DNA of 64,000 nt, from NCBI GenBank assembly GCA_000402655.1, contig AQSI01000002.1, forward strand, positions 83,720 through 147,719, written 5' to 3'. The position numbers and the translations under genes were made by a program. This document shows positions 22,163-36,579 of this stretch, piece by piece. Under the pieces are notes generated by a model that saw nothing but the letters and a program-made list of their open reading frames with translations, was not told the DNA's origin and did no database searches. The stretch comes from Fidelibacterota bacterium SCGC AAA298-D23. Its GTDB lineage: Bacteria; Fidelibacterota; Marinisomatia; Marinisomatales; Marinisomataceae. Numbering within the stretch: the stretch's first letter is position 1; each line of letters starts with the position of its first letter.

Positions 22163-22249
22163 TTAAGCTCCTTTTGAGTTATCCTCAAATTTCTTTCTCA
22201 ACTTCTTAACATTTTAATTGAAATAATGTTCCTTAATTTATAAATTATG

Positions 22250-22340
22250 GAATCATCAGGACGGGAGAAATCCCACCAACCGAGCTTAGGCCACGGTGGT
22301 TTGTCAAGTGACAGATGAGCAGCAATGCTGAAAATATCTG
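22250..22340 (+). other. GC-rich structured leader or small RNA candidate
   Basis: This segment is markedly GC-richer than its flanks. It contains a GGGA-GAAA-TCCC tetraloop hairpin, CCACC...GGTGG pairing and GTCA-AG-TGAC, and ends at the terminator listed next. Confidence 0.3.
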
Positions 22341-22364
22341 AAGCCCTCTGATGAGGGCTTTTTC
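22341..22364 (+). terminator. Rho-independent terminator/attenuator upstream of 22412 gene
   Basis: AAGCCCTC-TGAT-GAGGGCTT followed by TTTC. Confidence 0.6.
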
Positions 22365-22411: not shown

Positions 22412-23056
22412 ATGAAACCATATAATTATGGGCAGGGAAGTAAGAAGTTGTGGTACAACGATTATCCCGAGCCGTCTTACAAACTCATCACCATAGACTT
22501 CTCGTATGCTATGGAGCGTTTTACAGTTTATTATCCTTTTGGACAGCGCTTTAAAGAAGATATTCCCTTAAAACGCTTTGAGGAGATTTATCAATGTCAT
22601 AAATGTCATGACTTTTATGGTCGATTAAGCGATTGGGAATATGAAATGAATCCTGAGGTGCGTAAAGTGAATAGTGAATTTTGCAGAGAGTTTCCAGATG
22701 AAGGAGGCTATTGGTTTATCCATTGTCATTGCGAAGGATATTTTTGCTCTAATTGTACTACTAGATTAAGTACGCGTCGTCATTTATCAAATAAGTTAAT
22801 ACTAACTCCAAAGGATAAAGATCAGGACTTTTATATTAGCTTTACAAGTGCTATGTCAATGATGCGACGAAGTGCAAAATTTGACTATCACTTCAATAGT
22901 TGTTTTCGTAAAAAGAAAAAGCAAAAGCATTTTATCGAATGGCGAAAACAATTTCAAAGAGAAAAACACCATAGTTTGATGCGTCATTGGTATTGGAATG
23001 TATGTTCAATCCACTTACAAAATATACTTGAAAGAGAGGTGGGTAGAAATGAGTAG
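22412..23056 (+). CDS. Cys/His-rich hypothetical protein (probable zinc-binding)
   Basis: 214 aa with a strong AAGGAGG SD. It has the clusters CHKCHDFYG and HCHCEGYFCSNC and a basic C-terminal half. Its GC content is higher than its neighbours. Confidence 0.65.
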   Translation: MKPYNYGQGSKKLWYNDYPEPSYKLITIDFSYAMERFTVYYPFGQRFKEDIPLKRFEEIYQCHKCHDFYGRLSDWEYEMNPEVRKVNSEFCREFPDEGGYWFIHCHCEGYFCSNCTTRLSTRRHLSNKLILTPKDKDQDFYISFTSAMSMMRRSAKFDYHFNSCFRKKKKQKHFIEWRKQFQREKHHSLMRHWYWNVCSIHLQNILEREVGRNE

Positions 23057-23291
23057 TCTGATTGTGAGTAAACATTTTATGGAACGATTTTTTGAACGAG
23101 TGTTAAAATCTGAATGTACTTATTGTCGTTATGATGTGTTAAATAAAATGCAAGAAATGATGCATCATTATGAGAGCAATGCTTTTAAAACATTCAAATC
23201 CTCCTCGAAAAAAGTAAAACTACCATTCGGAAAAAAATATCATGCTGTTGTACAAAATAATACGTTGATTACTTGCTATAAGGTCGATTAA
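23049..23291 (+). CDS. Small DUF4258-like protein (possible toxin), paralog of 24115..24363
   Basis: I prefer ATG 23049 (after GAGAGGTGGG), which overlaps the upstream stop. SKHFMERFFERVLK...KLPFGKKYHAVVQNNTLITCY shares both blocks with the 24115 gene. Confidence 0.55.
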   Translation: MSSLIVSKHFMERFFERVLKSECTYCRYDVLNKMQEMMHHYESNAFKTFKSSSKKVKLPFGKKYHAVVQNNTLITCYKVD

Positions 23292-23433: not shown

Positions 23434-23706
23434 ATGACGCTACATTTATTTAATCCAAATTCAAAAGAATACAAAAAAATAGAACAAATCTATCAGAACA
23501 ATACATGCATGATCTGCAACCTTCCTATGAAGATGCATAGTTTATACTTCTTTTCATTTGACAAGGAAAAGGTAAAAGATGGAGAAATGCATGAAACATA
23601 CCATATTGGATGCAATAATTGCTTTTCGCTATATGACTCAGATTTTGTCTTGGTACAAATTGATATGAGACATTTCATTGGTTATACAATAAGAAATTTA
23701 GCTTAA
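23434..23706 (+). CDS. Small zinc-ribbon protein
   Basis: 90 aa with a GGAAAGGAA SD and two CxxC pairs (CMIC ... CNNC). Confidence 0.5.
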   Translation: MTLHLFNPNSKEYKKIEQIYQNNTCMICNLPMKMHSLYFFSFDKEKVKDGEMHETYHIGCNNCFSLYDSDFVLVQIDMRHFIGYTIRNLA

Positions 23707-23713
23707 CTACATA

Positions 23714-23739
23714 TTAAAATGTATTATATTACATTTTAA
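23714..23739. repeat. Perfect 10-bp inverted repeat (hairpin or operator)
   Basis: TTAAAATGTA (23714-23723) and TACATTTTAA (23730-23739) with a 6-nt loop, 8 nt after the stop of the 23434 gene. A related TACATTTTAAGATGTA sits in the 24051 promoter. Confidence 0.45.
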
Positions 23740-23844
23740 AATATATATAAAAATAACATTTATTTAGATTACGCAGTTTAACAATATAAGACAATTCAAG
23801 AAGAGTAGACGTAAGTATTAGTACTCGTTGCAACCAGCATAGAG

Positions 23845-23960
23845 CGTCGCAACGACTGGACAGTCTACAGTAGCTAAATCGTCGCAACGACTGGACAGTC
23901 TATAGTCGATAAATCGTCGCAACGACTGGAAAAGTCTACAGTCGCTAAAACGTCGCGAGC
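23845..23960. repeat. Three tandem 35/35/36-bp GC-rich direct repeats plus a partial fourth copy
   Basis: Copies are at 23845-23879, 23880-23914 and 23915-23950, and CGTCGC starts again at 23951. The first 23 nt of copies 1 and 2 are identical (CGTCGCAACGACTGGACAGTCTA). Each unit carries the mini-palindromes GTCG-CAA-CGAC and GACTG-GA-CAGTC. Confidence 0.9.
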
Positions 23961-24050: not shown

Positions 24051-24079
24051 TTGACATACATTTTAAGATGTAGTAAGTT
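24051..24079 (+). promoter_or_regulatory. Candidate sigma70-type promoter of the plus-strand island operon
   Basis: TTGACA (24051-24056), a 17-nt spacer, then TAAGTT (24074-24079). The spacer contains the inverted TACAT/ATGTA. Confidence 0.45.
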
Positions 24080-24114
24080 GATTCATGATTAAAAACTTAA
24101 CAAAGGAACAAAAC

Positions 24115-24363
24115 ATGCAATTATTAAACGGAATAAGAGTTACAAAGCACTTTATAGAACGTTATGCTGAAAGAGTGCTTAAAATTGGTAAATATAATTA
24201 CTCTGCAATGCGAATTAAAGTACTAGAAGATCTTATTGAACGTATGACTATGGTTGAAAAACAAAGCTTTGGTTTATTATGTTCATCTAGAAATTTAAAA
24301 TTTCCCCTTGGTGGAGTCTATAGAATGGTAATTTGTAACAAATCTTTAATAACAATATATTAA
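24115..24363 (+). CDS. Small DUF4258-like protein (possible toxin), paralog of 23049..23291
   Basis: ATG 24115 is preceded by an AAAGGAA SD. The track's ATG 24085 would sit at the predicted transcription start. TKHFIERYAERVLK...KFPLGGVYRMVICNKSLITIY matches the paralog. Confidence 0.6.
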   Translation: MQLLNGIRVTKHFIERYAERVLKIGKYNYSAMRIKVLEDLIERMTMVEKQSFGLLCSSRNLKFPLGGVYRMVICNKSLITIY

Positions 24364-24377
24364 TAATAGGAGTTAAA

Positions 24378-24593
24378 ATGTCATACGATGCAGAAAAAGT
24401 ACAATTAAAAGATATCATTGAAACATTTAAGAGTAAAGTACGTAGATTAAAAGGACTAACAAAATATATGCCTGGATTACTCCATGGAACAGTAGAAATG
24501 ATGGATGCGTTAATTTATAAATATGAAAATGATAAAATTTTAGATGTTGATAGCATACATTTTTATATGAAGGAAAATCATGACAAAAACTAA
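24378..24593 (+). CDS. Hypothetical small protein
   Basis: 71 aa with an AGGAG SD, 14 nt after the preceding stop. Confidence 0.55.
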   Translation: MSYDAEKVQLKDIIETFKSKVRRLKGLTKYMPGLLHGTVEMMDALIYKYENDKILDVDSIHFYMKENHDKN

Positions 24594-25815
24594 CTATTTA
24601 AAGCCAACTCTGCTTAAGACTACTAAAGAATCAAATATATGGTTTGAAAGAGTTTGGAAAGTAGACCCAAGTCTTCATTTGGAGTATACCAAATTACTTT
24701 CTGATATGAAGGAATTTAATAGAGATTCAAGCTTGGTTTACTCAACATTGCTTTCAGTTAATGAAAATGAAAAAAAACATTCGAGCAAAGATATTGATAA
24801 AGTTTTTAACTTAATACCTAATAATCACAATGATGCATGGGAGCAGCTTAATGCAGTTGTAAAAGTTGTTGATTCAAATAAAAAAAAGGCAAAAACATCT
24901 TATGTATTTGGTTCAAGAACTTTCAGAGATCCTTTAAGGAAAAAATTTTTTCTAGCCAAATATAGTGACGGAAAAAACACTTTTTTACATAGCAATCCCG
25001 TTACTAATCATGAAAATAATAAAGATATTGTTATAAATGTTTCACATAATATTAAAACTGACAATCCAACAAAAAAGAAAGGTTTAAATACTTCAAAAGA
25101 ATTATTATCAAAGTATCTTTCTAAAAAACCAATAAAATTCTCAAACTTTAAAAATGAAGAAAATATTGAATATGAGTTTACCTATCCAGTACTTCATTCA
25201 AAAGTTATAACATGTATCAGCTTTATTAAAAGAGCTGTTAGCATTTTTTTTAAATGCCACGGTATTAATTTTTCTTCTATAGATATTGTACCAATCTCAA
25301 ATACAAATTATGAAATATTTATTGCTAGTTCAGAGGCATCTGATGTTAATTCTTTTTGTTCACAGAATTCATATTTCACTTTTAATGGGTATATGGGTCC
25401 TGATGAGGTAGAATGTTCACCACTAGCTAATCATTTTAATTTGTTCTTGAATGAAATTTTTACAAAATCAAATCTCTATTATTTCAATCAAGATCTTTGG
25501 ATTTACTTAACTTTCAATATTTATTCCAGAGATAAATCACTTAGGTTCAATACAATTATGAATAAAAGAATGGAAAGAATAATTAAGACAATTCGATCTC
25601 TAAATAATTTACATCACAAAAATAATTATGAATTTGATAAAAGTGATTTTGATAATTCATATAACAACTTGGATGAAGCAATTAAAGATTATAAAGCTAT
25701 ATATGAACAATGGTTCAAAGATAATGCTATACCAAAATCTCCAGAGGAAGAAATTGAAATGCTAAAAAAAGAATTGGCTGAAAAACAAGAGCTTTTAAAG
25801 AAGTCAAAAAAATAA
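24580..25815 (+). CDS. Hypothetical protein (ORFan, Asn/Lys-rich, C-terminal coiled coil)
   Basis: 411 aa with a 14-nt overlap onto the upstream gene and no motif I recognise. Confidence 0.65.
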   Translation: MTKTNYLKPTLLKTTKESNIWFERVWKVDPSLHLEYTKLLSDMKEFNRDSSLVYSTLLSVNENEKKHSSKDIDKVFNLIPNNHNDAWEQLNAVVKVVDSNKKKAKTSYVFGSRTFRDPLRKKFFLAKYSDGKNTFLHSNPVTNHENNKDIVINVSHNIKTDNPTKKKGLNTSKELLSKYLSKKPIKFSNFKNEENIEYEFTYPVLHSKVITCISFIKRAVSIFFKCHGINFSSIDIVPISNTNYEIFIASSEASDVNSFCSQNSYFTFNGYMGPDEVECSPLANHFNLFLNEIFTKSNLYYFNQDLWIYLTFNIYSRDKSLRFNTIMNKRMERIIKTIRSLNNLHHKNNYEFDKSDFDNSYNNLDEAIKDYKAIYEQWFKDNAIPKSPEEEIEMLKKELAEKQELLKKSKK

Positions 25816-28512
25816 GTGATGAGTAGAATCTTTCCAGACTCAAATTATAATATTTTTGAAGATCTTAATAATCCAAGAAGTAAGAGTGAGTGGGGATATG
25901 GATATGAAAAATCAAGCAATACAGAATTTATTAATTACAAAGAGTTTATAGATAAGCTTGACCAGTATGTTGATTCAAATTTTAAAATATGGCTAGGAAC
26001 TGACCCTTATAACCCTCTTTATTTTTCTGAGATATGCATCTTTGATCAAGAGAACGGAACTTTTCATCTAATTGAATACTTTCCTTTTAAACATCAAGAG
26101 CAAGTTAATTACATTTTCAATCCAAATGCTTTTAAAAGGGGCGTACTTATTAAGGATAGAATTTTTAAAAATAAAAAAAATCCAAAATCTTTTTCAACCA
26201 AAGATCATCATTTGTATCTGAAAAATATTCTTGAACTTAAAAAAATATATGATAACAAGGGTGACAAAGGACAGCTTTCGGACGTTGATGAGAGCAGGAA
26301 AAAAGATATTTTAAATTATAATAATAAGTTTGAAAAACTTTTAAAAGACTATAAGACAATAAAAGATGATCCAGTTAACAGACTGAATAGGTTTTCTTAT
26401 GGAATAACAGATTCCCTAAATATCTCTAACAATGATGCTAAATCATTTAGAGAAAATAACATTTATAAACATTTCTTTTTTGGAAATCTTAACTCAGAAT
26501 ATAAAGAAGATTATTTTATTACATCTGAAGATGAAAAGAAATTTTTTTCATCACAAAAGGCATACAATTACGGAAAAGGTATTAATTATTATGGTAGGGA
26601 AGACTTCCAATTATTGATTGATAAAATAAATAAACAGATAAAAAATCCAATTTGGAATTCCAAAAAACATGTTAAAAAAATAGAATTCAATTTTTTACCT
26701 GTAATAAAAAAAGTTGAAAAGAATAAACCTAAAAAACTTTCAGATATTCAGATAAAACATGTGAATAGAAAAGCTTTTTCAAGTAGGATGAGAATATCAG
26801 GTGTTGCTGGTTCCGGAAAAACTTTTTGTTTAACAACAAGAGCAATGAATTATGCTAATAACGATAAAAATGTTTTGTATACATTCTTTACTTCGTCATT
26901 CAAAAGTTATGTTATACACAACTTAGAAAATCCTGATTTTACCTATAAAAGACGAGTTGGTAATTACAATAAACCGAGTATAGTTGTCAAAAATATTCAT
27001 ATGTTATTTTCAGAAATGATAGACCAATATTATTTACACATTAAGTCTCTAGGTCTTAAAGATGATGAGGGTCTAGATTATAGAAATATCAGAAAAATAA
27101 AGCCCGAAAAAAATAAAAGTTTTGAAGTGGCATTTACAACAAAAATAAATCGTTTAATAAAACATGATGAAAAAGTTTTTTTTGATGCGATGGGAAACGT
27201 TTTTGACTTTGATGCTATAATGGTTGATGAGGGTCAAAATTTTAAAAGCTCATGGTTTTCTGTTTTGCAAAAAGTTTGTTTAAAAAATAGACCAAAAGAA
27301 CAGACTTATGGAGATATGATGGTAGCATTTGATGAAAAACAAAAGCTATTTGGTGATAATGAAGTTGGAGAATCAATAAAGGAACTATCAAAACCCGAAT
27401 TAATAAATGATCCTTTAAATGCGACATATAGAATTCCACCTAATTTGTTTGAAAAGGTAAATATTGTTAGAAAAAAACTTGGTTTGTCAGAAATCGAATA
27501 CATAATTCCTAGTAAAAAAGATTTAGATTTTATGTCTGAAGGAGAATATGAATGGATAAACATACCAAAGAATTTTTCATCTATAGATGATAAATCAGAA
27601 TTTATTGTAAATAATACACTTAAAATAATTAAAAAAAATAGTTTGAAGCTTGGTGACAGTGCTATTATAACAGACGATCATACAATAATGGCTAAAATCC
27701 AAGATTTAATTAACAAGAAAAATCTTCTAGAGAATAATGATGCGCATTTAGAAAAGATTACAGATGAACAAGAAATATTAGATAAAAACAAAAATCACAC
27801 CACTATGATTCTAACAGAATGCCCTGACAAACATAAAGAGAAGCTTCATAATATGCTTTTAAACAGTAATATTGAACCTGGGAAAGATGAATCGTGGTTG
27901 CTACAAGATAATGAATTTAAAATGAAAAGTTATGGAAAGTGGAATCCAGAAACAAGGTCAAGAAAATTAAGAAATGACTACAGCTTGCTTAACACCGATA
28001 AGTATAATTTATTATTCCATTTATATGAGGATGAAGAACAATTACAGGAGTCCATCCTTGATGATTATGAACAGGATATCCCATCTTATGCTATAGATCC
28101 AAAACTTTCAAAAGAAAGTTTAAATTTACTACCTGATGTTAAGTACGAAGTGGCTTACAATTGGAATGAAAATGAGCTAAATACTCATAAAATATCTAGA
28201 AGGGCTCAATGGCTAAATAGGCAATTGAAGGATATTTACGACTTCTCAGATGATAAAGGGTTAATTACTCACACAATAAAAAGCTTTCAAGGACAAGAAT
28301 TACCAAATATTTTTATCTATCTTTCCAGTCAATTCAATAAAGATGGATTAAGAAAAGAGCAAGGAGCTAAATATACATATTGGAAAAGTTCATGGGAATA
28401 TGAAGCTTATGTTAATCAGCTTTTTGTTGCACTTACTAGGTCTAGAAATTCTGCTTGGTTATTTAATGATAGTAGCGAATTAGATTTTATTTCTGAAGAA
28501 TTTAATAGGTGA
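25816..28512 (+). CDS. Superfamily-1 (UvrD/Rep-like) helicase-family ATPase with about 320-aa unknown N-terminal region
   Basis: 898 aa, starting at GTG 25816 or ATG 25819, directly abutting the upstream stop. Motifs are Walker A GVAGSGKTF, motif II IMVDEGQNF, NATYRIP (NYRS-like), IKSFQGQELPNIFIYL and LFVALTRSRNSAWLF. Confidence 0.8.
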   Translation: MMSRIFPDSNYNIFEDLNNPRSKSEWGYGYEKSSNTEFINYKEFIDKLDQYVDSNFKIWLGTDPYNPLYFSEICIFDQENGTFHLIEYFPFKHQEQVNYIFNPNAFKRGVLIKDRIFKNKKNPKSFSTKDHHLYLKNILELKKIYDNKGDKGQLSDVDESRKKDILNYNNKFEKLLKDYKTIKDDPVNRLNRFSYGITDSLNISNNDAKSFRENNIYKHFFFGNLNSEYKEDYFITSEDEKKFFSSQKAYNYGKGINYYGREDFQLLIDKINKQIKNPIWNSKKHVKKIEFNFLPVIKKVEKNKPKKLSDIQIKHVNRKAFSSRMRISGVAGSGKTFCLTTRAMNYANNDKNVLYTFFTSSFKSYVIHNLENPDFTYKRRVGNYNKPSIVVKNIHMLFSEMIDQYYLHIKSLGLKDDEGLDYRNIRKIKPEKNKSFEVAFTTKINRLIKHDEKVFFDAMGNVFDFDAIMVDEGQNFKSSWFSVLQKVCLKNRPKEQTYGDMMVAFDEKQKLFGDNEVGESIKELSKPELINDPLNATYRIPPNLFEKVNIVRKKLGLSEIEYIIPSKKDLDFMSEGEYEWINIPKNFSSIDDKSEFIVNNTLKIIKKNSLKLGDSAIITDDHTIMAKIQDLINKKNLLENNDAHLEKITDEQEILDKNKNHTTMILTECPDKHKEKLHNMLLNSNIEPGKDESWLLQDNEFKMKSYGKWNPETRSRKLRNDYSLLNTDKYNLLFHLYEDEEQLQESILDDYEQDIPSYAIDPKLSKESLNLLPDVKYEVAYNWNENELNTHKISRRAQWLNRQLKDIYDFSDDKGLITHTIKSFQGQELPNIFIYLSSQFNKDGLRKEQGAKYTYWKSSWEYEAYVNQLFVALTRSRNSAWLFNDSSELDFISEEFNR

Positions 28513-28518
28513 CAATTT

Positions 28519-28713
28519 ATGGGCTGCTTTAACACATTATTTTTATTATTACTTGGCGGAATATACTTATTCTGGCCTGATTTAATGCAAGTTGAAGGCT
28601 TTTGGTTTAGTTTTATAGCTGTATGGCTATGTTTTTTTATTTCATGGGCATTATTTGGCGATATAGCAGATGAAATTTCGGGTGTAAATAAATATAAAGA
28701 TGATGAATTCTAA
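28519..28713 (+). CDS. Small two-TM membrane protein
   Basis: 64 aa with two hydrophobic helices and an acidic tail. Confidence 0.55.
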   Translation: MGCFNTLFLLLLGGIYLFWPDLMQVEGFWFSFIAVWLCFFISWALFGDIADEISGVNKYKDDEF

Positions 28714-29077
28714 ATCACTTAATTGGTCTAACTGGAAATTATTACCAAATCCTTCTAAGTCACATAATAGTTTTAGATCGTTAATCATGAAAGCAGTAAG
28801 AAACCCTTCCTATCCAGGAGTTTATCAATTAAAAAACAATGATACGGGTGAATATGTACTTTTTGGGGTAGGTGTTAAGGTAGGAGAGCGTATGTGCTCC
28901 TTAATTCCTAAAGAATACGGTGGTGTTGGACGAAGAAACAACCACTATAAAAGAGATTATGTTTGGAAAAATATAGAATACATTCAGTTTAGAACGATAA
29001 CTACTGAAACACGCAATGAAGCTCTTGAAATAGAAAGATTTTTAAAACATCAAAATATTCATATTTTCAATACATGA
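28700..29077 (+). CDS. GIY-YIG-like nuclease domain protein
   Basis: 125 aa. PGVYQLKNNDTGEYVLFGVG supplies the GIY and YIG elements with the correct spacing. It also has a downstream Arg and the NEALEIERFL catalytic-Glu helix. It overlaps both neighbours. Confidence 0.55.
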   Translation: MMNSKSLNWSNWKLLPNPSKSHNSFRSLIMKAVRNPSYPGVYQLKNNDTGEYVLFGVGVKVGERMCSLIPKEYGGVGRRNNHYKRDYVWKNIEYIQFRTITTETRNEALEIERFLKHQNIHIFNT

Positions 29078-29904
29078 ATTCTAGCGTGAAACCTTTTTTG
29101 AAGTGGGTAGGTGGCAAGTACACTTTAGCAATTGAGCTTAAAAAGCATTTACCAAACAATTTTGATGAGCTTAATTATATTGAACCAATGTTAGGTGGAG
29201 CTGGTATGTTTTTCAATTTGCAACCAAAAAAAGCTATTTTAAGCGATATAAACAAAAAACTTATCATAACCTATCAATCTATCCAAAATAACGTTGAAGG
29301 TGTTATTTCGGAGCTAAAAAAGCATGAATTAAACCACAAAACTAATGAAGATTACTTTTATGATGTAAGAGAGTATTTTAATAAAGGATGTGAAACACGT
29401 GAAGGACTTGCAGCAGCTTTTATATATCTAAATAAAACAAATTTTAATGGATTATATAGAGTTAATAATAAGGGAGAGTTTAATGTTCCAAAGGGAAGAA
29501 CTACCTCGGGTTCTGTTACTATCTGCGATGAAAAAGTATTAAAAAATTGCTCAGATTTGCTTAAAGGTGTTGAACTGTATTGGAAGTCCTATGAAGATGC
29601 TTTAAAAGATTTAAATAAACATTGTTTTGTATATCTAGATCCTCCTTACTTACCACAAACAGATGTCTCATTTACTAAATATTCTAAAGATGGATTTTCA
29701 GTTGAGGATCATCAAATATTATCAAAACATTGTAAAGATTTATCTCAAAGAGGTATAAAGTTTATGATGTCAAATGCTGAAAATGATTATACGTATGAAA
29801 TATATGGTGATTTTTCAATTAAACCACTGACTGTTTATCATTCTCTGGGTCCAGACAAAAAAACAAGAAAAAAGGCAAAGGAATGTATAATTACAAACTA
29901 TTAG
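29074..29904 (+). CDS. Dam-family (alpha-class, D12) N6-adenine DNA methyltransferase
   Basis: 276 aa. PFLKWVGGKY, EPMLGGAGMFF, NFNGLYRVNNKGEFNVP and YLDPPY are collinear with E. coli Dam. Confidence 0.88.
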   Translation: MNSSVKPFLKWVGGKYTLAIELKKHLPNNFDELNYIEPMLGGAGMFFNLQPKKAILSDINKKLIITYQSIQNNVEGVISELKKHELNHKTNEDYFYDVREYFNKGCETREGLAAAFIYLNKTNFNGLYRVNNKGEFNVPKGRTTSGSVTICDEKVLKNCSDLLKGVELYWKSYEDALKDLNKHCFVYLDPPYLPQTDVSFTKYSKDGFSVEDHQILSKHCKDLSQRGIKFMMSNAENDYTYEIYGDFSIKPLTVYHSLGPDKKTRKKAKECIITNY

Positions 29905-29905
29905 T

Positions 29906-30355
29906 TTATTTAGCTGCTTTTTTCATGTAGGAGTAAAGAGTCGTAATTACTTTTTCTTCATCCTCTTGATTTAAAATCTTTAGAAGCTTTTTAATTCCGC
30001 CATTAGCATACTCATGCGAAATATTTTGAATAATTTTTTTATCTTCATCTAAAATTTCAAGCCCTTTTTCTTTAACGGCTATAGATACAATTAAAGCAAC
30101 GGTATTTTTTCGCAAAATAGTGTCAATATTTCCACCTCTTACTTGCTGTAACCAACCGCCATTATTATTTGTGAAAGTTCCTTTTAATTTCAAATTATCT
30201 GTGTAGCCAATAGCTATCGCCATACAAACGACTTGTAATTTATCTATATTATATTTATCAACAATTTCATGTTTAAAAACTTTTTGCCATGTTTCTTCGT
30301 TTTTACTATCAATATAGAAAGCACTTCGTACAAAATTTTGAATATTATTTGCCAT
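29906..30355 (-). CDS. DndE-like / dnd-associated small protein (tentative)
   Basis: 149 aa with a TAATG overlap onto the upstream ATPase. The blocks VVCMAIAIGY ... NNNGGW ... ISHEYANGGIKKLLKIL loosely follow my memory of the DndE pattern. Confidence 0.35.
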   Translation of the reverse strand: MANNIQNFVRSAFYIDSKNEETWQKVFKHEIVDKYNIDKLQVVCMAIAIGYTDNLKLKGTFTNNNGGWLQQVRGGNIDTILRKNTVALIVSIAVKEKGLEILDEDKKIIQNISHEYANGGIKKLLKILNQEDEEKVITTLYSYMKKAAK

Positions 30356-32475
30356 TATATTGTTCTTTTATGGTAGTTAGTCTCAATTGCATTATCTTTA
30401 TCTAAGCTTGAAATTTTTATTTCATAGAAGTTTGAGACATAGGGTTTAATAATCTTGAAAACATCATCAGTGAGTTCAGAGTCAGTAAAAAAGAAGGTAG
30501 TTTGAATATCTTTATCTTTCAAGTTAACAAAATTTTCCATTATTCCTTTTCTGTATTCTAAACTAACCGCACTAAGAGGCGTATCAATAAACATTGGAAA
30601 TCTTAATTCCAAACCTTCTTGCATGGACTGCATGTAACAATATCCTGTAAGAAATTGTTCCCCTGTTGACATGAGAGGAGAACCATTCAATGGAAGTAAA
30701 TTATTATTATTCTTATCACTAACATTTAAGTTGTAATTTTCAGAGATTTTAGCATTCCAAAAACCTTTTTTTAGCGTTGTTGTTTCAATTAATTTTCTAA
30801 ACCTATCATTAGTAACTTTTAAGGCTTCCAGTCTTGTGTCCTCAATAGCTGGCTCTAGAAGATTAATTGATTTTTCAAGAAAATTTAATTGAATATATGC
30901 TTCTGAAGAACTTGATATATTTTTTTTAATATTTTTAATTTCCTCATTGAGTTCTCTTATAAAATCAATATTAGTTTCAACAATAGCTTCTTTTTTAGTT
31001 AAATCTCTATTAGCGACTTTAAGCCTTATTTCTGCCATATCATGTTTTTTTTGAATTTCTTTCATTGACTTTTTATCATAATTTCCAATTTCATTCATAT
31101 GATCTGCTCTTTGTTTATCTAAGTTACTCAGTTTATTTTTAATTTTTTTTAATTCGTCATATGAATTTTTTGCATTCTCGAAGATTATGGTTGGACTGTC
31201 ATTTAAAATTCCAGCTGTAAATTCTTTGGTATGGGTTGCAATATTCGCAATTTGACTTTTTCTTTTTGATGCAACTCCTTGATTATATTCTTTTATTTTA
31301 TCTAGAAATTTTTCCTTATTAAAATTTTTAATCCAATTTATTTTTGCATAAAATTGTTTATCTTTTTTTAATTTTCCATCAATATCTTTAATTACAAGTT
31401 TATCCTCATCAATAATTAAATCTAATATGTCTTCAACATTTTCAAGGGCAGGAGGGGGTAATTCTTTATTTTCAATTTTTTTTGCAATTAATGTATCAAA
31501 ATCATCTATTTCTTTTCTTAGAACAACATTTGCAAATGATTCTAATATATCTGTTTTATACTTATTATCTATTTCGTTGTATTTTTCATTTAATGCTACC
31601 TTTTGAATATCAATTATTTCAACTTTATTATAAATTTTTTCTGTTGCCTCATTTTTTTTTATGATTTCAACGTAGTCATTGATTTCATTCTTAATGCTTA
31701 ATATTTCCTCCTCAAGTTCGCCAATATCATTTACAAGCTTATTACCGAGTTCAATTTTTTCTGTTACAGAATTTTGAGTTCTAACAAGAATAGCTTCTGG
31801 GCTGGTTCCTGTCGATTTTGGTATTTTTTTAACAAGCTCAGATCTTAAATTTTTAAGATTTTTTAAAACACTTGTCATATCAGTAATTCCTGTTAATATG
31901 TTTAAATGAGATTCAATTGAGGATGATTTGTTTGCTTTAACAAAATCTTGAATGTCCTGACCATCAAAAAAGAAGAAGTTTTGAATTGATCCATTGATAA
32001 TATTATTTTCAATATACTGTTCTGCGCTGTCATCCTCTCTGGATTGCAATCCTTCAGAATTATAAAAAGTAACATCTAATTGAGCTTTTTTAGGTAAATA
32101 CTTTAACTCAACTGGTTTTGTGTCCGTCTTATCTTTTATCTTTTGAAAAACTTCTGAACGTTCAACAGTTTTTTCATTATTATTTTCGTCGAGAAATATA
32201 ATTTTTACAGAAACTGTTTCTTCTTCATTAATTAGCATTTGTTGTGCAACTTTAAAATTTAGTCTTTCATTTTGAAATTCTTTTTGTCTGATATTTGATA
32301 ATCTAGGTTCTTTATTAAAAAGGCACCAACTTATTGCCCTGTAAGTACTAGTCTTTCCAAATCCATTATTTCCTAGAATTATGTTAAAAGGCTTATTTTT
32401 TGAAGTGCTCAAATCGAGCTCATGAAAACCCTTATATTGTCTAAAATTATTTAAATGAATTTTTTTAATTTTCAT
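30355..32475 (-). CDS. DndD-like SMC/ABC-type ATPase
   Basis: 706 aa. The N-terminus is MKIKKIHLNNFRQYKG...ILGNNGFGKTS (Walker A), followed by about 400 aa of coiled coil. The C-terminus has the STGEQ signature, then PMFIDTPLS and FFFTDSEL, as in DndD (xIDTPLGRLD...TDxE). Confidence 0.65.
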   Translation of the reverse strand: MKIKKIHLNNFRQYKGFHELDLSTSKNKPFNIILGNNGFGKTSTYRAISWCLFNKEPRLSNIRQKEFQNERLNFKVAQQMLINEEETVSVKIIFLDENNNEKTVERSEVFQKIKDKTDTKPVELKYLPKKAQLDVTFYNSEGLQSREDDSAEQYIENNIINGSIQNFFFFDGQDIQDFVKANKSSSIESHLNILTGITDMTSVLKNLKNLRSELVKKIPKSTGTSPEAILVRTQNSVTEKIELGNKLVNDIGELEEEILSIKNEINDYVEIIKKNEATEKIYNKVEIIDIQKVALNEKYNEIDNKYKTDILESFANVVLRKEIDDFDTLIAKKIENKELPPPALENVEDILDLIIDEDKLVIKDIDGKLKKDKQFYAKINWIKNFNKEKFLDKIKEYNQGVASKRKSQIANIATHTKEFTAGILNDSPTIIFENAKNSYDELKKIKNKLSNLDKQRADHMNEIGNYDKKSMKEIQKKHDMAEIRLKVANRDLTKKEAIVETNIDFIRELNEEIKNIKKNISSSSEAYIQLNFLEKSINLLEPAIEDTRLEALKVTNDRFRKLIETTTLKKGFWNAKISENYNLNVSDKNNNNLLPLNGSPLMSTGEQFLTGYCYMQSMQEGLELRFPMFIDTPLSAVSLEYRKGIMENFVNLKDKDIQTTFFFTDSELTDDVFKIIKPYVSNFYEIKISSLDKDNAIETNYHKRTI

Positions 32476-32672
32476 TTTTTTCTTTTTCTTTGTTTTGAAA
32501 TTTGATTATTTAAAGAATCAATATAGTCTTTTCTGTACTGTGTAATAGTTTGATAGTTTTGAATTGATTGAATATTAATTAAATGCTTTAAAAAGTGGTA
32601 ATTTTCTATATTATCATCCTGTTCAGCTATTTTTTTAATTATTTCTAATCCTTTATCTGAAAATGATTTCAT
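32472..32672 (-). CDS. Small helical protein with basic tail
   Basis: 66 aa with ATGA overlaps on both sides and a C-terminal KQRKRKK. Confidence 0.55.
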   Translation of the reverse strand: MKSFSDKGLEIIKKIAEQDDNIENYHFLKHLINIQSIQNYQTITQYRKDYIDSLNNQISKQRKRKK

Positions 32673-34726
32673 TCTTCAATTTTCCATTCTTCTTTTAAAT
32701 TTTCTATCATGATTGAATTTTCATCATGATTTAACGAAATATGAGAAAATTCATCAATTCTTTCTAGTTGTTTTTTAATTAAGTTTTGTTGCATAAGAAA
32801 TGATATACTTGGATCTGCAGGGGGGATACAAATAAAATCATAAATATCAGCAATTTTTTTAGATTCTTTATATGGTTTTCTAAGGACTCGTCCACGTCTT
32901 TGAATATATTGCTTTGAATTATTTGAGCTAGCAAGTATAATTGCAGTTTCAGCATTTGGAATATCTACACCTTCATCAAGACAATTCATTGCAATAATTG
33001 CATCAAGTTTCTGATTTTTAAATCTGCTCATCATATCCTTTCTAGCTTGTGTTGATGTACCAGATATAAATCTCATATATCTCATACCTTTTTCATTTAA
33101 AATTGACTGTATATTTTCTAAAAAATCTTTTGTGCCGCAATATATAAAACCTCCATTTAAGTCGTAGTTTAATTCGCTAATTAAATTTTCGAATGCCTCA
33201 TATTTATTGTATGCTGTTTTTATTATTTCTGCTCTTTGTAATAATAGATTTTCATAATGTTTCTTAAACTCTGGCTTATCATAAATAGGAGCCATCTTTC
33301 TAGTTAATTCTTTATAATCTTGTAACTCATCATTTGTTAAATCAACAAGATTAATATGATATCTATATGGGCATAGAAAGCCATTTTCAATTCCCCATGC
33401 CAAATCTTTTTCATAAAAACATCCTTCTTTATCAAAATATGTATATATCAAATCACTACCTTCATCATCAAAATATCTTTTTGGTGTTGCGCTTAATGCA
33501 ATGCGACAATCAAAATTATTAATTAAACCTTGTTTCCATTTTGGAGCACCTGCATTATGTACTTCGTCACATATTATAGCCAAAGGTTTTTGACATTCAT
33601 TAATGATTTTTTTATAATCGTCTTTATAGAAAGACTGATAAGTAACTAGACATATTATATTATCTTCAAATTCTATATTAAGATTGGTTATAGCTTGCTG
33701 TAATTCTTTTTTGCTTCTATCTCTTAAAATAAAAGGTTGAATACCTAAAATTTTTTCAATTTCATCAGCCCATTGATAAATTAGCGTTTCACTAGGAACA
33801 ACAATTGAGCAATAGTATGCATTATCAACTGATTTAGCATATTCTTTTAATGCAAAAAGGGAAGTATACGTTTTACCTAATCCAGTCGCTAGCGCAAGAA
33901 TACCTTTGAAATTATTTTGAACAAGTTTATCGATTGCTTCTTGTTGGTACTCACGCGGACCACTTTCCTCAACAATAATTTCTTGTGATTCTGAATTAAT
34001 TTCAATTAAATCTTTTGTCAGTTGATCGCTAGCAACTAATACATCTTGAGTAGTTTTTAGGTCATTATTTATTAACAGTCTTTCTTTGCAAACTTTCGGA
34101 AAATCTACAACTTCAACTTTATCGGCAAGATTATTCCAGTAAATATCAAATTTTCTGAAACTATTTTCTACTCTTTTTTTATCAATTTCGTTATCCCAAG
34201 ATGTAAAAATATTTGCACTCTCAATCTGATTAAGAAGTGAATTTGCTGACTCATTAATTGATCCATTATAATTCAATCTATTTCCATCAGGATCTTCGAA
34301 ATTTCCCCATTTTGAGTGTAACATACCACCATCATCAGGCTTCTTAAATCCAATCTTTATTTCAAGAAAATCATTTGCTATCATCCAGCCTAGTATCTTT
34401 CTTGGATTATCTTTCAACATAAGTTCAAGTTTTTTTATATCATCTAATAGCTCATCATCAAACTGATTTGTATAACCAGCTTTTATAGACTCATAATCTT
34501 CTTCGCTATTAATATGTTTGCTAAAAATAAGTCGATATTTACCTTTATTTTGAATGAATTGAGACATTCCTTCTGCTACAGCTGATAACGATTTAGGACT
34601 AAAATATCCCGCAACTCTATCATACCGCATAGAGTTCTTTAATGCAGGAAGGTAAAAATCGCTCAGAAAATTATCTTCTAAGCCTCCATCAAAATGTTCA
34701 CTAATTTTTAAATTTTTTAAATTCAC
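32669..34726 (-). CDS. PLD-family nuclease domain fused to a DExH (SF2, restriction 'res'-type) helicase
   Basis: 685 aa with a GTG start. It has a single HKD motif (HSKWGNFEDPDGNRLNYNGSINES). Helicase motifs are I ATGLGKTY, II ICDEVHNAG, III LSATPKR, V LDEGVDIPN and VI QRRGRVLR. Confidence 0.8.
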   Translation of the reverse strand: MNLKNLKISEHFDGGLEDNFLSDFYLPALKNSMRYDRVAGYFSPKSLSAVAEGMSQFIQNKGKYRLIFSKHINSEEDYESIKAGYTNQFDDELLDDIKKLELMLKDNPRKILGWMIANDFLEIKIGFKKPDDGGMLHSKWGNFEDPDGNRLNYNGSINESANSLLNQIESANIFTSWDNEIDKKRVENSFRKFDIYWNNLADKVEVVDFPKVCKERLLINNDLKTTQDVLVASDQLTKDLIEINSESQEIIVEESGPREYQQEAIDKLVQNNFKGILALATGLGKTYTSLFALKEYAKSVDNAYYCSIVVPSETLIYQWADEIEKILGIQPFILRDRSKKELQQAITNLNIEFEDNIICLVTYQSFYKDDYKKIINECQKPLAIICDEVHNAGAPKWKQGLINNFDCRIALSATPKRYFDDEGSDLIYTYFDKEGCFYEKDLAWGIENGFLCPYRYHINLVDLTNDELQDYKELTRKMAPIYDKPEFKKHYENLLLQRAEIIKTAYNKYEAFENLISELNYDLNGGFIYCGTKDFLENIQSILNEKGMRYMRFISGTSTQARKDMMSRFKNQKLDAIIAMNCLDEGVDIPNAETAIILASSNNSKQYIQRRGRVLRKPYKESKKIADIYDFICIPPADPSISFLMQQNLIKKQLERIDEFSHISLNHDENSIMIENLKEEWKIEE

Positions 34727-35349
34727 TAAAATATTTCTGTTTGTTCTTTTAAAGATATTTCTTTTGTTTTTTCGTTTATATAAAAACTATCTGGTGCATT
34801 CAAGCCAATTAAAATTATTGGTGTAGGCACGATGCTTTGATATGGCTTAAAATATTCTATAAAGTTCTCAAAAGTTCCAACTGCTCCATCAAAATTGCCA
34901 ATTTTTTTTAAGTTGCTAGTAGCACAAATGATGACACCTAAGCTCGTTTGGATTTCTTTTTTTACATGATTTAGTTCACTAGAAAGTACTGGCTTCATGA
35001 TGTTATGTGAAATTACTGTACTGTGATTGAATGCTACCTCGAGAGCTAGTTCATTTTTTACAAAATCTAAACGCCATTTTCTATTTGTCTTATAAGCTTT
35101 ATCGTAAAAAATAGCAGATTCAGAGCTCCAACCTAGATTAAGTAATTTTTCCTTGAGAATTTGATTTATAGGTTCTGAAAGGCTTTTAATATTTGGCCTT
35201 TCTTGTTTTCTGAAGTTAAACGCATTAATTAGGTCTTTATCAGAAATTGAATTAATTACAGATATTAATTCATCGTAATCTTCTTTATATTTTAAATCAC
35301 TTTTAACTATTTGATCAGAGTGTCTATGATAGTATAGTGTATGTTTCAT
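34726..35349 (-). CDS. BglII/BstYI/BamHI-like type II restriction endonuclease (tentative)
   Basis: 207 aa. WRLDFVKNELALEVAF has the same D-x8-E-x-X spacing as the BglII core IDFGKRDTLVEVQF, and the C-terminal TPIILIGL resembles BglII VPIRLVGL (from memory). It lies adjacent to a C5 methyltransferase. Confidence 0.55.
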   Translation of the reverse strand: MKHTLYYHRHSDQIVKSDLKYKEDYDELISVINSISDKDLINAFNFRKQERPNIKSLSEPINQILKEKLLNLGWSSESAIFYDKAYKTNRKWRLDFVKNELALEVAFNHSTVISHNIMKPVLSSELNHVKKEIQTSLGVIICATSNLKKIGNFDGAVGTFENFIEYFKPYQSIVPTPIILIGLNAPDSFYINEKTKEISLKEQTEIF

Positions 35350-35373: not shown

Positions 35374-36579
35374 ATGCCAAAATTAAAAGTAGTAGAATTA
35401 TTTGCCGGAGTAGGAGGGTTTCGATTAGGTCTTGAGAAATCAGGCCATAAAACTGTTTGGGCTAATCAATGGGAACCAAAAACAAAGGTTCAACATGCAT
35501 TTGATTGTTATAGCGCGCATTTTGATGATTCATTTAAAGATTTAAATACTGATATTAACGAAGTTGATTACACTAAAGTGCCCAATCATGACTTACTTGT
35601 TGGCGGATTTCCTTGCCAAGATTACTCAGTTGCTACTGTCCAAGCACAGGGAATAGAAGGGAAAAAGGGAGTATTATGGTGGGCAATTGAGAAGATTTTA
35701 AGAGAAAAAAGACCTAAATATGTACTTCTTGAAAACGTAGATAGATTGCTACGATCTCCAACACAGCAAAGAGGGCGTGATTTTGGTGTTATTTTGTCAT
35801 GTTTGCATAATCTTGGGTATTGTGTTGAGTGGAGAGTTGTTAACGCCGCAGAATATGGATTTCCTCAAAAAAGACGTAGAACTTTCTTTTTTGCAGCTCA
35901 AAAAGGTACAAAGTGGTACAAAAATATGGAAAAAAGGCATTTAGAGCCTGATTTTATCCACAATAAAGGATTTTTTAGTGATGAATTTAAAGTCAAACAG
36001 GACAACACGCTCGAAATCAACCTTTTTGATGAGGTTAAAAATATAGCTGATACGCAATCTATAAGCGACACATTCTCATATCATTTTTTGAATTCTGGCT
36101 TTTTATTTAATACTACAATTAGTACAAAGAAGGTTTTTCCAGATTATAATGGAAAACAGACTGTTTTAGGAGATATATTAGATAAAACTGTTGATGATAA
36201 GTATTTTGTCAGGGATGAAGCACAAATTTGGAAATGGAAAGAACTAAAAGGCGCTAAAAAGAGAAAAGTTAAGCGAAAAGATGGTGGTACATTTTTTTAT
36301 TCAGAAGGTTCAATGCCATTTCCTGAGCCTTTAGAAGCTCCAGCGCGTACAATTATTACATCTGAAGGCGGACAAACGCCAAGTAGATTCAAACATATTA
36401 TCATGGATCCAAAGAAAAATGAATATAGAACGTTAACACCAGATGAAGTTGAAAAAATATGCGGGTTTCCAGCTGGATGGACAAATACTGGAATGCCCGA
36501 TAATTGGAGATATTTTTGTATGGGTAATGCATTGGTTGTAGGTCTTATTGAAAAGATGGGAAAAACTTTATTAAATTAA
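35374..36579 (+). CDS. DNA (cytosine-5)-methyltransferase
   Basis: 401 aa with motifs I ELFAGVGGF, IV GGFPCQDYS, VI LLENVDRLL, VIII FPQKRRRTFF, IX TLTPDEVEKICGFPAGWT and X MGNALVVGL. Confidence 0.93.
   Translation: MPKLKVVELFAGVGGFRLGLEKSGHKTVWANQWEPKTKVQHAFDCYSAHFDDSFKDLNTDINEVDYTKVPNHDLLVGGFPCQDYSVATVQAQGIEGKKGVLWWAIEKILREKRPKYVLLENVDRLLRSPTQQRGRDFGVILSCLHNLGYCVEWRVVNAAEYGFPQKRRRTFFFAAQKGTKWYKNMEKRHLEPDFIHNKGFFSDEFKVKQDNTLEINLFDEVKNIADTQSISDTFSYHFLNSGFLFNTTISTKKVFPDYNGKQTVLGDILDKTVDDKYFVRDEAQIWKWKELKGAKKRKVKRKDGGTFFYSEGSMPFPEPLEAPARTIITSEGGQTPSRFKHIIMDPKKNEYRTLTPDEVEKICGFPAGWTNTGMPDNWRYFCMGNALVVGLIEKMGKTLLN

Follow-up and report, generated by a model that had tools for sequence, protein, structure and literature searches.

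What does a string of tightly packed genes without a named counterpart do in an uncultured marine bacterium? This question is raised by a cluster of seven genes, numbered gp1 to gp7, which lie on the plus strand at 24085-29904 of the 64,000-nucleotide (nt) stretch of contig AQSI01000002.1 that was analysed here and is referred to as the window. The host belongs to the Marinimicrobia (SAR406), and the cluster is part of a 14.4-kb defence island at about 22.2-36.6 kb. A first-pass annotation, made from the sequence letters, had proposed one seven-gene system built around a helicase. This proposal could not be upheld, since gp3, the helicase and the set of gp5, gp6 and methyltransferase are each found without the rest in related loci. 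With a confidence slightly above even, the string is instead understood as a co-directional chain of separable defence cassettes in a chromosomal hot spot, exchanged by recombination between strains and species, and not as one obligate seven-gene machine.

Four cassettes would make up this chain. The first comprises gp1, gp2 and gp3, i.e. two small constrained proteins and an orphan protein with swapped N-terminal three quarters and a constant C-terminal coiled-coil part. The second is the effector in the fourth slot, which is a divergent superfamily 1 (SF1) helicase here and an unrelated Cys-rich protein in other loci. The third pairs gp5, which has two transmembrane helices, with the probable GIY-YIG mini-nuclease gp6. 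The fourth is a Dam-family methyltransferase travelling with the restriction module that follows it, PbeABCD in the window and a DUF7226/SF2-helicase/PD-Lambda-5_A-like set elsewhere.

Gene content and coding potential

The genes of the cluster are as follows.

gp1, 24115-24363, plus strand: 82 amino acids (aa), or 92 aa from 24085; motifs TKHFIERYAERVL ... SLITIY; ratio of nonsynonymous to synonymous divergence (dN/dS) 0.15
gp2, 24378-24593, plus strand: 71 aa; most constrained gene of the cluster, dN/dS 0.05; no family match
gp3, 24580-25815, plus strand: 411 aa, orphan family
gp4, 25819-28512, plus strand: 897-aa SF1 helicase with extra insertions
gp5, 28519-28713, plus strand: 64 aa, two hydrophobic helices
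gp6, 28700-29077, plus strand: 125 aa, probable GIY-YIG-type mini-nuclease
gp7, 29074-29904, plus strand: Dam-family (D12 class) N6-adenine DNA methyltransferase

All seven open reading frames (ORFs) of the first-pass annotation were recovered in the ORF listing, with gp1 at 24085-24363, gp4 at 25816-28512 and the other five as given above. The junctions also agree, namely a 14-nt gap, a 14-nt overlap, direct abutment, a 6-nt gap, a 14-nt overlap and a 4-nt overlap. Likewise, the region is AT-rich as described, with 25-28 % GC at 24-28 kb compared to about 31-35 % in the backbone, which makes it the most AT-rich part of the window. For two genes, a later start codon is more likely. gp1 probably starts at the ATG at 24115 (82 aa) instead of 24085 (92 aa), because its relatives are all called in this way and an AGGA lies 7 nt upstream. 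gp4 probably starts at the ATG at 25819 (897 aa) since every relative opens with MSRIFPDS. Every gene of the cluster has a dN/dS between 0.05 and 0.42 with substantial synonymous divergence (dS; Nei-Gojobori method against relatives). Therefore, all seven are genuine coding genes under purifying selection.

No match was found for gp1, gp2, gp3, gp5 and gp6 in Pfam, PADLOC, NCBIfam and PHROG, and none of the models in these libraries names gp1 to gp6 as a system, so the earlier statement that the gene set is not a named system stands. The exclusion of Gabija and Hachiman was right as well, and no GajA match occurs among the genes of 22-37 kb. Sequence and profile searches of PDB gave nothing significant for gp1, gp3, gp4 and gp6. 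The label "DUF4258-like" for gp1 had to be dropped, as gp1, its paralog gp0b and a distant homolog of gp1 have no DUF4258 match even at E<=10, and this identity was rejected for lack of a hidden Markov model (HMM) signal. The description of the 64-aa gene product as a protein with two transmembrane segments fits gp5, in which two hydrophobic segments were found.

Allele exchange and separable cassettes in related loci

The comparison set, designated by L numbers, comprises about 20 loci from contigs of relatives, one metagenome scan with gp2 and the contexts of gp6 relatives. Two classes of genes can be distinguished by their conservation. gp1, gp2, gp5, gp6 and the upstream gene gp0c are 83-100 % identical wherever they are present; this holds for gp2 across all Marinimicrobia loci and for gp5 in all loci, irrespective of the genes downstream. 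The alleles of gp3 are 47-84 % identical, and gp4 exists in two types that are 54-60 % identical. All four combinations of the gp3 and gp4 alleles were seen, namely A/A in the window, B/A in L006, A'/B in L007 and B/B in L002.

The edges of the exchanged segments are sharp, at about 24.60/25.51 kb and at 25.9/28.5 kb. The sliding identity between the window and L006 is 91-99 % up to 24.6 kb, drops to 45-65 % at 24.62-25.5 kb and returns to 93-100 % up to 29.1 kb. According to the alignment and the sliding identity, residues ~8-310 of gp3 (24.60-25.51 kb) are an exchangeable variable cassette, and residues ~311-411 are constant. Compared to L007, the divergent block covers 25.9-28.5 kb and thus gp4, in which everything from about residue 30 onwards is a second exchangeable cassette. 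The backbone of L006 is only 71-76 % identical at the nucleotide level and its epimerase gene 76 %, with a dS of 1.35, which places this locus in another species. Since gp4 to gp6 are 99.0-99.2 % identical between L006 and the window (gp4 dS 0.027) next to this divergent epimerase, a recent exchange between species is indicated.

The cassettes also occur separately. The genes for the 411-aa protein and the helicase had been expected to co-occur in other genomes. This is the case in nine related loci; however, gp3 is followed by a Cys-rich protein of 369-381 aa in the helicase slot of four loci (L009, L010, L011 and L013), and in L004 a type-B helicase lies directly beside the backbone gene u185 with no gp3 upstream. 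The possibility that the Cys-rich protein is a truncated helicase or a helicase N-terminus was rejected on the basis of an hhalign probability of 0.1 %. In L016-L019 and L021, a Dam-like methylase of 43-44 % identity and the DUF7226/SF2-helicase/PD-Lambda-5_A-like module come after gp5 and gp6, while gp1-gp4 are missing; in L021, gp5, gp6, the methylase and the DUF7226-type module are the entire island. Conversely, gp5 is found without gp6 and gp7 in L002, L009 and L013, where it is followed by a C5 methylase (L002, L009) or directly by a HATPase_c_3 gene like that of L009 (L013). In all these contexts gp5 is constant and forms the left border behind which the methylase/restriction cargo varies.

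The framing genes of the hot spot are housekeeping or backbone genes, with the epimerase/u128 genes on the left and the u223 and LeuRS genes on the right. Comparable chromosomal hot spots, in which conserved genes frame an exchangeable cargo, have been described, for example the P2/P4 hot spots and the defence islands of E. coli and Vibrio. The locus shares with them the fixed site, the conserved short framing genes, the sharp-edged cassette swaps and the near-identical segments between species. It differs in that no integrase and no prophage or satellite backbone is present, the units of exchange can be smaller than a gene (as with the N-terminal three quarters of gp3) and the left border carries an S-adenosylmethionine (SAM) riboswitch.

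A role of the cassettes in defence is suggested by two observations. PbeABCD, a BglII-like endonuclease paired with a C5 methyltransferase, and the Dam methyltransferase surround the cluster, and the alternative cargos of the relatives are themselves defence systems, Mza-like in one case and a PD-Lambda-5_A-like set with an SF2 helicase in another. The defence-type setting that the first-pass annotation had supposed is borne out by the same neighbours, with PbeABCD directly downstream, followed by the BglII-like endonuclease and the C5 methyltransferase.

Further observations were made in individual loci of the comparison set. The cargo after gp5 in L009 (3958-12335) consists of the C5 methylase, HATPase_c_3, Z1 (MzaC 8.7e-100), DUF4420 and AIPR (3e-75) genes and is a candidate Mza-type system. 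In the place of gp1-gp4, L016 (4539-9697; also L017 and L018) carries genes for a 413-aa protein, an HSP70/MreB-like ATPase (544 aa), an M48 peptidase with a weak match to PADLOC capP (4.4e-05), proteins of 134 aa and 211 aa, a DUF6804 protein and a 62-aa protein. This module is a candidate for another defence system in the same socket. In L002 (2044-4631) and L001 (1051-4950), which are low-coverage metagenome contigs, the helicase is split into at least two ORFs, as is gp3 in L001, probably due to assembly error and less likely through genuine pseudogenisation.

The orphan protein gp3 and distant loci

gp3 was correctly called an ORFan. A protein search of 5.8 billion clusters returned nine relatives, all from marine metagenomes or metagenome-assembled genomes (MAGs), and an exhaustive HMMER search of 1.84 billion representatives returned 32. 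Its constant part bears the motif RDKSLRF...SLNNLHHKNNYEF and a coiled coil, and is under stronger constraint than the variable part (dN/dS 0.12 vs 0.42). Distant relatives share only the C-terminal half, with YPxLHPxV..., SIDIxP and RDKSLRF...SLNxLHxxxNYxF, and the 32-protein family defined by this half has no Pfam domain match. In the AlphaFold2 model of gp3, which is of moderate confidence (predicted local distance difference test, pLDDT, 67), a helical hairpin is combined with a beta-rich and an alpha/beta part, and the C-terminus forms long helices. Foldseek found no structural neighbour of this model in PDB (best E 0.44) or BFVD (best E 0.78).

Two distant loci hold gp3-like genes in a context of their own. 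L022, from a distant genome and located beside two tRNA genes, contains three overlapping genes for a gp1-like protein (33 % identical), a gp3-like protein (32 % identical over the C-terminal half) and a gp6-like protein (48 % identical), followed by a DEDDh exonuclease gene. In L023, a gp3-like gene follows a gp1-like C-terminus and precedes an HNH_3 nuclease gene (3e-16), behind which an ORF opens with an SF1-type P-loop (GFAGTGKT). Elsewhere, in L020, a gp6-like gene stands alone beside a housekeeping gene.

Judging from L022 and L023, it is conceivable, as a tentative suggestion, that a gp1-like gene, a gp3-like gene and an interchangeable mini-nuclease of the GIY-YIG-like or HNH kind form an undescribed three-gene immunity or selfish module, which occurs in at least three marine lineages, is sometimes joined by an SF1 helicase or a DEDDh exonuclease, and of which SAR406 trades residues ~8-310 of gp3 and the helicase between species. 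Going one step further, this ancient trio could be the true core of the cluster, split in the window by gp2, the helicase and gp5, with the helicase as an optional accessory and the Dam and Pbe genes as unrelated neighbours. Among the alternatives to the cassette chain this one survives best, and it is still rather improbable. In its favour, the three genes overlap in L022, nuclease and helicase have both been displaced by non-orthologous genes in L023, and the C-terminal domain of gp3 defines a family of 32 proteins. However, the proposal is built on three independent contexts, and in the Marinimicrobia the members do not stay together: gp6 occurs without gp1 and gp3 in L016-L021 and gp3 without gp6 in L002, L009 and L013, to which the solitary gp6-like gene of L020 is added.

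The helicase gp4

Residue numbers of gp4 refer to the 897-aa form. The SF1 helicase motifs claimed for the 898-aa protein are present, with GSGKT at 331-335, DEGQ at 470-473 and ALTRSR at about 871-876, and both allele types keep them. In Pfam, only weak matches were obtained (Viral_helicase1, UvrD_C_2, AAA_19 and UvrD-helicase). The sole PADLOC match is PDLC01087 "C3a187 NERD+UvrD" with an E-value of 3.2e-20 (1.2e-20 was also obtained), which covers only residues 284-517. Like gp3, gp4 has few relatives, as the search of 5.8 billion clusters found only five, all from marine metagenomes or MAGs, and among plasmid records only remote matches to the helicase core were found, annotated as NERD-domain/UvrD helicases and 21-25 % identical.

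The first-pass annotation had considered a resemblance to nuclease-helicase immunity proteins, and for the helicase core this was supported. Besides the PADLOC match, hhalign aligned gp4 with the NERD helicase of Acinetobacter with a probability of 98.2 % (E 5.4e-14; gp4 41-551 to 25-443). This alignment begins within the NERD domain of the Acinetobacter protein, where YKEFIDKLDQYVD stands opposite EKKFIDYLDQHLP. The motor of gp4 is thus assigned, by profile comparison, to the NERD+UvrD (Nhi-like) clade as a divergent member. Since its core is closest to NERD+UvrD proteins, the comparison with Nhi-like systems is a good lead.

For the N-terminal part, a NERD identity is not recognisable. In genuine NERD helicases, the match to PDLC01087 begins at profile position 7 or 14 and extends over the entire protein (6e-110 and 2e-62). 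Both allele types of gp4 match from profile position 174 only, i.e. the helicase part. The PADLOC Nhi model (PDLC02372) matches the Bacillus NERD helicase at 1.1e-07 and neither gp4 type A nor type B at E<=0.1. Residues 1-320 have no Pfam or PADLOC match (E<=1 and 0.1, respectively), NERD (PF08378) included. When aligned alone, the N-terminus gave a weak hhalign probability of 39.7 % over 23 columns with the Acinetobacter NERD helicase and no alignment with the Bacillus NERD helicase. On these results, the NERD-like reading of the segment ICIFDQENGTFHLIEYFPFK stays a weak possibility; the ExK position of NERD reads P-F-K in gp4 in the full-length hhalign alignment. Nevertheless, the first ~100 residues are functionally important, as they are the most constrained part of the protein between the allele types (dS 1.5, dN 0.11). 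The AlphaFold2 model of gp4 (seven-row alignment, pLDDT 40) was unusable.

Several known systems resemble gp4 in part. Nhi-like nuclease-helicases have been documented and the Nhi model summarised (PMC10732053), NERD is listed for Nhi-like systems (PMC10952713), and the C3a187 family of NERD+UvrD helicases is associated with CRISPR type III (Shah et al. 2018, PMC6546367). gp4 resembles these proteins in its SF1 motor of the UvrD type, in which Walker A, DEGQ and motif VI are intact, in its location within a defence island and in its ability to stand apart from gp1-gp3, as in L004. In contrast, it exceeds them by about 300-400 residues, no NERD match is found for its first 320 residues, and it is embedded between orphan partners in most loci, whereas Nhi-like systems are single-gene defences. 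With Gabija, the cluster shares a UvrD-like helicase and a separate nuclease gene in a defence island, but it has no OLD/TOPRIM ATPase-nuclease; its candidate nuclease is the 125-aa, GIY-YIG-like gp6, and the GajB models match gp4 type A not at all and type B only at E 0.013.

Related arrangements were noticed on plasmids. In L024 (Acinetobacter pittii plasmid NZ_CP135160.1, 2636-11173), a canonical NERD-UvrD helicase, the one aligned with gp4 above, lies between hsdS and an hsdR-like gene in a type I restriction-modification operon, and in L025, a Bacillus plasmid, an HNH endonuclease gene comes after the gene for a NERD helicase. Helicases of the NERD-UvrD kind may thus be add-ons that recur in restriction-modification systems.

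Taken as the centre of one integrated defence system, gp4 would have the other six genes as obligate partners. The tight packing and overlaps of the genes, the apparently single conserved promoter-like element and the conservation of the full set in L006 and L007/L008 are in agreement with this, but each component occurs without the others in some relative, the gp3 and gp4 alleles reassort in all combinations and the helicase slot can hold an unrelated protein, which leaves the integrated system unlikely.

The mini-nuclease, the methyltransferase and the Pbe module

The genes downstream of the cluster up to the right end of the island are the following.

PbeD, 29906-30355, minus strand: 149-aa gene in the PbeD position; convergent with gp7
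PbeC, 30355-32475, minus strand: PADLOC PbeC 1.2e-34
PbeB, 32472-32672, minus strand: 66-aa gene in the PbeB position
PbeA, 32669-34726, minus strand: PADLOC PbeA 4.4e-196
BglII-like restriction endonuclease, 34726-35349, minus strand: PF09195 5.6e-09
C5 cytosine methyltransferase, 35374-36579, plus strand: PF00145 2e-68

The Dam methyltransferase named as the last gene of the string was readily confirmed. gp7 reaches 261.3 bits with TIGR00571 (cutoff 114.85; 1.1e-77), 197.6 bits with PF02086 (3.9e-58) and 2e-85 with PADLOC MTase_II, and has DPPY at residue 189 and GGAG, the SAM-binding glycine loop, at residue 41.

For gp6, the call "GIY-YIG nuclease" was only partly substantiated. Y42, Y52, G56, R64, E112 and N124 do not vary among 11 homologs, the most distant of which is 56 % identical, and the L022 homolog keeps E112 and has D in place of N124. 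These residues presumably correspond, in canonical order, to the GIY and YIG tyrosines, the Arg, the catalytic Glu and the Asn of the family. gp6 itself has no Pfam match at E<=0.1. Its L022 homolog matches PF01541 with 16.1 bits (cutoff 22.6; E 0.014; profile positions 2-72 of 78), and the only nuclease matches of the gp6 profile in PDB are the GIY-YIG domains of UvrC (1yd6/1yd3, E 0.6-1). The residue pattern and these weak matches point to a GIY-YIG domain, but all matches remain below the family thresholds, and the assignment is therefore regarded as probable. gp6 shares the positions of Tyr, Tyr, Gly, Arg, Glu and Asn and the core spacing with GIY-YIG nucleases, i.e. the N-terminal domain of UvrC, homing enzymes and Eco29kI/Hpy188I-type enzymes. 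It differs from them in its length of 125 aa, the absence of a recognisable DNA-binding domain and its independence of any one methylase.

The overlap of gp6 and gp7 by 4 nt could indicate an ordinary type II restriction-modification pair of a GIY-YIG endonuclease and a Dam-type methylase, with gp1-gp5 as unrelated neighbours. Restriction enzymes of the GIY-YIG family exist, such as Eco29kI and Hpy188I, and GATC is under-represented in the window, with 158 sites vs 207 +/- 14 expected from dinucleotide-preserving shuffles, 100 out of 100 of which had more sites. Restriction directed at GATC, in the past or at present, would be compatible with this deficit. However, gp6 is 88 % identical in L016 and L021, where the adjoining methylase is only 43-44 % identical, and in L022 and L020 a gp6-like gene is found with no methylase at all. 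For these reasons gp6 is not considered the cognate endonuclease of gp7, and the simple pair was rejected for the lack of co-variation and the occurrence of gp6-like genes without a methylase. Together with the absence of a recognisable DNA-recognition domain in gp6, this makes the explanation very unlikely.

The likely restriction partner lies on the other side of gp7. The methylase after gp6 is always followed by a restriction-type module. gp7 adjoins the Pbe genes in L003, L007 and L008, and in L006 the two are co-directional, with a Pbe set that is 32-44 % identical to that of the window. Because L006 keeps the adjacency despite the changed orientation and this low identity, the gp7 methylase and PbeABCD are likely functionally paired, with PbeABCD as the restriction partner, as judged from gene order and sequence divergence. 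Pairing with a methyltransferase in place of Dnd phosphorothioation has been raised as a possibility, and 155 of 320 solitary pbeAC adjoin methyltransferases (Xiong et al. 2019, PMC6459918). The window agrees with these cases in having a solitary pbeABCD beside a DNA methyltransferase and no dnd genes. It differs in that the methylase ends a longer string with a two-transmembrane protein and a mini-nuclease, and that sister loci join the head of gp5, gp6 and methyltransferase to restriction modules other than Pbe.

The BglII-like endonuclease and the C5 methyltransferase are a separate type II restriction-modification pair at the right end of the island. The position of the endonuclease is taken by a MutH-family nuclease in L006. 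Independently of these genes, the cumulative GC skew of the window peaks at about 30 kb, where the gene orientation flips from plus to minus, so that the island coincides with a skew switch resembling a replication terminus.

Upstream elements and the question of mobility

The left part of the island, from its border to gp1, contains the following elements.

SAM-I/IV riboswitch aptamer, 22248-22346, plus strand: Rfam RF01725, 46.8 bits (gathering score 41.1)
Terminator hairpin, 22340-22361, plus strand: from a terminator scan, just before gp0a
gp0a, 22412-23056, plus strand: 214 aa, Cys/His-rich, first gene of the island
gp0b, 22998 or 23049 to 23291, plus strand: 80-97 aa; paralog of gp1, 35-39 % identical to gp1 homologs
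gp0c, 23434-23706, plus strand: 90 aa, zinc-ribbon-like, CxxC...CxxC
35-bp tandem repeat, 23845-23956, unstranded: GC-rich, 3.2 copies, score 180 in Tandem Repeats Finder
Promoter-like element, 24051-24079, plus strand: TTGACA, spacer TACATTTTAAGATGTAG, then TAAGTT

The riboswitch also marks the left border of the island in L006 (8200-8302), L016 (3586-3684) and L017 (2041-2139). Its aptamer is 96.6 % identical to that of L016, though the backbone there is only about 70 % identical. The gene behind it is non-homologous between loci, being gp0a in the window and genes for proteins of 120-126 aa in L006 and L016. A SAM-sensing switch thus precedes defence-island genes near SAM-dependent methylases. 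gp0a, gp0b and gp0c have no family match in the library searches; gp0c is 89-97 % conserved in L006, L007, L012, L013 and L016, and gp0b and gp0c may be a second small-protein pair resembling gp1 and gp2.

The promoter that had been placed at 24051 has a perfect TTGACA and is kept in L001, L002, L006, L007 and L008, with a diverged form in L009/L010, but its -10 element is poor and it was not listed by the consensus scan, so it is referred to here as promoter-like. Its spacer contains the palindrome TACAT-N6-ATGTA (24057-24072), the only other perfect copy of which in the 64-kb window lies just past the gp0c stop codon (23708-23723), with a one-mismatch copy at 23730-23745. The palindrome looks like an operator and is a candidate binding site for a regulator. 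The 35-bp repeat is a copy-number-variable array, with 6.8 copies in L001, the closest relative, and a single unit in L006, L002 and L007/L008. A role of the repeats as replication iterons was rejected, as most relatives carry only one copy.

No integrase, Rep or relaxase domains were detected in the library searches of the island genes, and no att-like boundary was found. Relatives were absent from IMG/VR for the gp3-family queries (A1, A5, P0045 and P0037) and from GenBank phages for gp3, gp4, gp6 and P0045, on which grounds a phage or satellite origin was rejected; the plasmid collection, searched with gp4 only, yielded nothing beyond remote helicase cores. The satellite-replication module that had been considered for the cluster was accordingly abandoned, as there is no integrase or Rep, the repeats are not conserved iterons and viral or phage relatives are missing. 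More broadly, the cluster could serve the replication or mobility of a satellite, plasmid-like or homing element, with the repeats as iterons, gp3 as initiator, gp4 as helicase, gp6 as homing-type nuclease and the defence genes as cargo. The upstream tandem repeats, the 99 %-identical segments common to different species and the tRNA genes beside L022 speak for this, as does the typical use of small GIY-YIG and HNH nucleases in homing; the PADLOC "HEase" model is matched by the gp6-like protein of L022 with an E-value of 0.016. These points are outweighed by the missing mobility genes, boundaries and phage relatives, the same chromosomal site of the island in all relatives, the varying repeat number (one, 3.2 or 6.8 copies, a single unit in most loci) and the absence from the 125-aa gp6 of the DNA-binding domain that known free-standing homing endonucleases have, which makes this the least probable explanation of all.

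Interpretation and proposed mechanism

The chain of separable defence cassettes faces several objections. The defence role of the cluster is argued from guilt by association, and the synteny among close relatives could be partly inherited instead of functional. Short metagenome contigs of a single lineage make up most of the comparison set, and assembly errors have broken up some of them (L001 and L002). gp6 reaches no GIY-YIG threshold. The helicase may lack a nuclease, because its N-terminal 320 residues match no NERD model and a canonical D...ExK is not evident. Finally, the trio of gp1-like, gp3-like and gp6-like genes in L022 stands alone and cuts across the proposed cassette boundaries, which suggests a functional unit deeper than the separable cassettes.

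If the cassettes do act in defence, a division of labour can be proposed. gp7 would methylate the host DNA and thereby provide the self-mark for the neighbouring Pbe module. gp4 would engage replicating foreign DNA in the manner of Nhi-type nuclease-helicases, and cleavage might come from its constrained N-terminal domain, from gp6 or from both. The variable part of gp3 could serve as a specificity or sensor subunit that is docked via the constant C-terminal coiled coil, and gp1 and gp2 could be a small regulatory or toxin-antitoxin-like pair.

Implications

The locus combines known kinds of elements, i.e. a Nhi-like helicase, a methylase with Pbe and a defence hot spot. Its value lies in the host and in the resolution with which the exchange can be followed. 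Almost nothing is known of the anti-virus genes of SAR406/Marinimicrobia, uncultured bacteria that abound in the ocean, and the locus shows at base-pair resolution a fixed chromosomal socket in which defence cassettes, including parts of genes, are swapped between species. It also offers candidates for experiments: a very divergent Nhi-like helicase with an N-terminal domain that is strongly constrained but unassigned, the gp3 orphan family, which is repeatedly located between a small protein and a mini-nuclease, and a SAM riboswitch ahead of island genes. Furthermore, it is a natural test case for a PbeABCD system whose self-mark would be adenine methylation and not phosphorothioation, which Xiong et al. 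2019 (PMC6459918) had left as a question. Should the trio of gp1, gp3 and nuclease prove to be a system, it would be a new family for the catalogue of defence systems; if not, the locus would be a well-documented, ordinary mosaic defence island.

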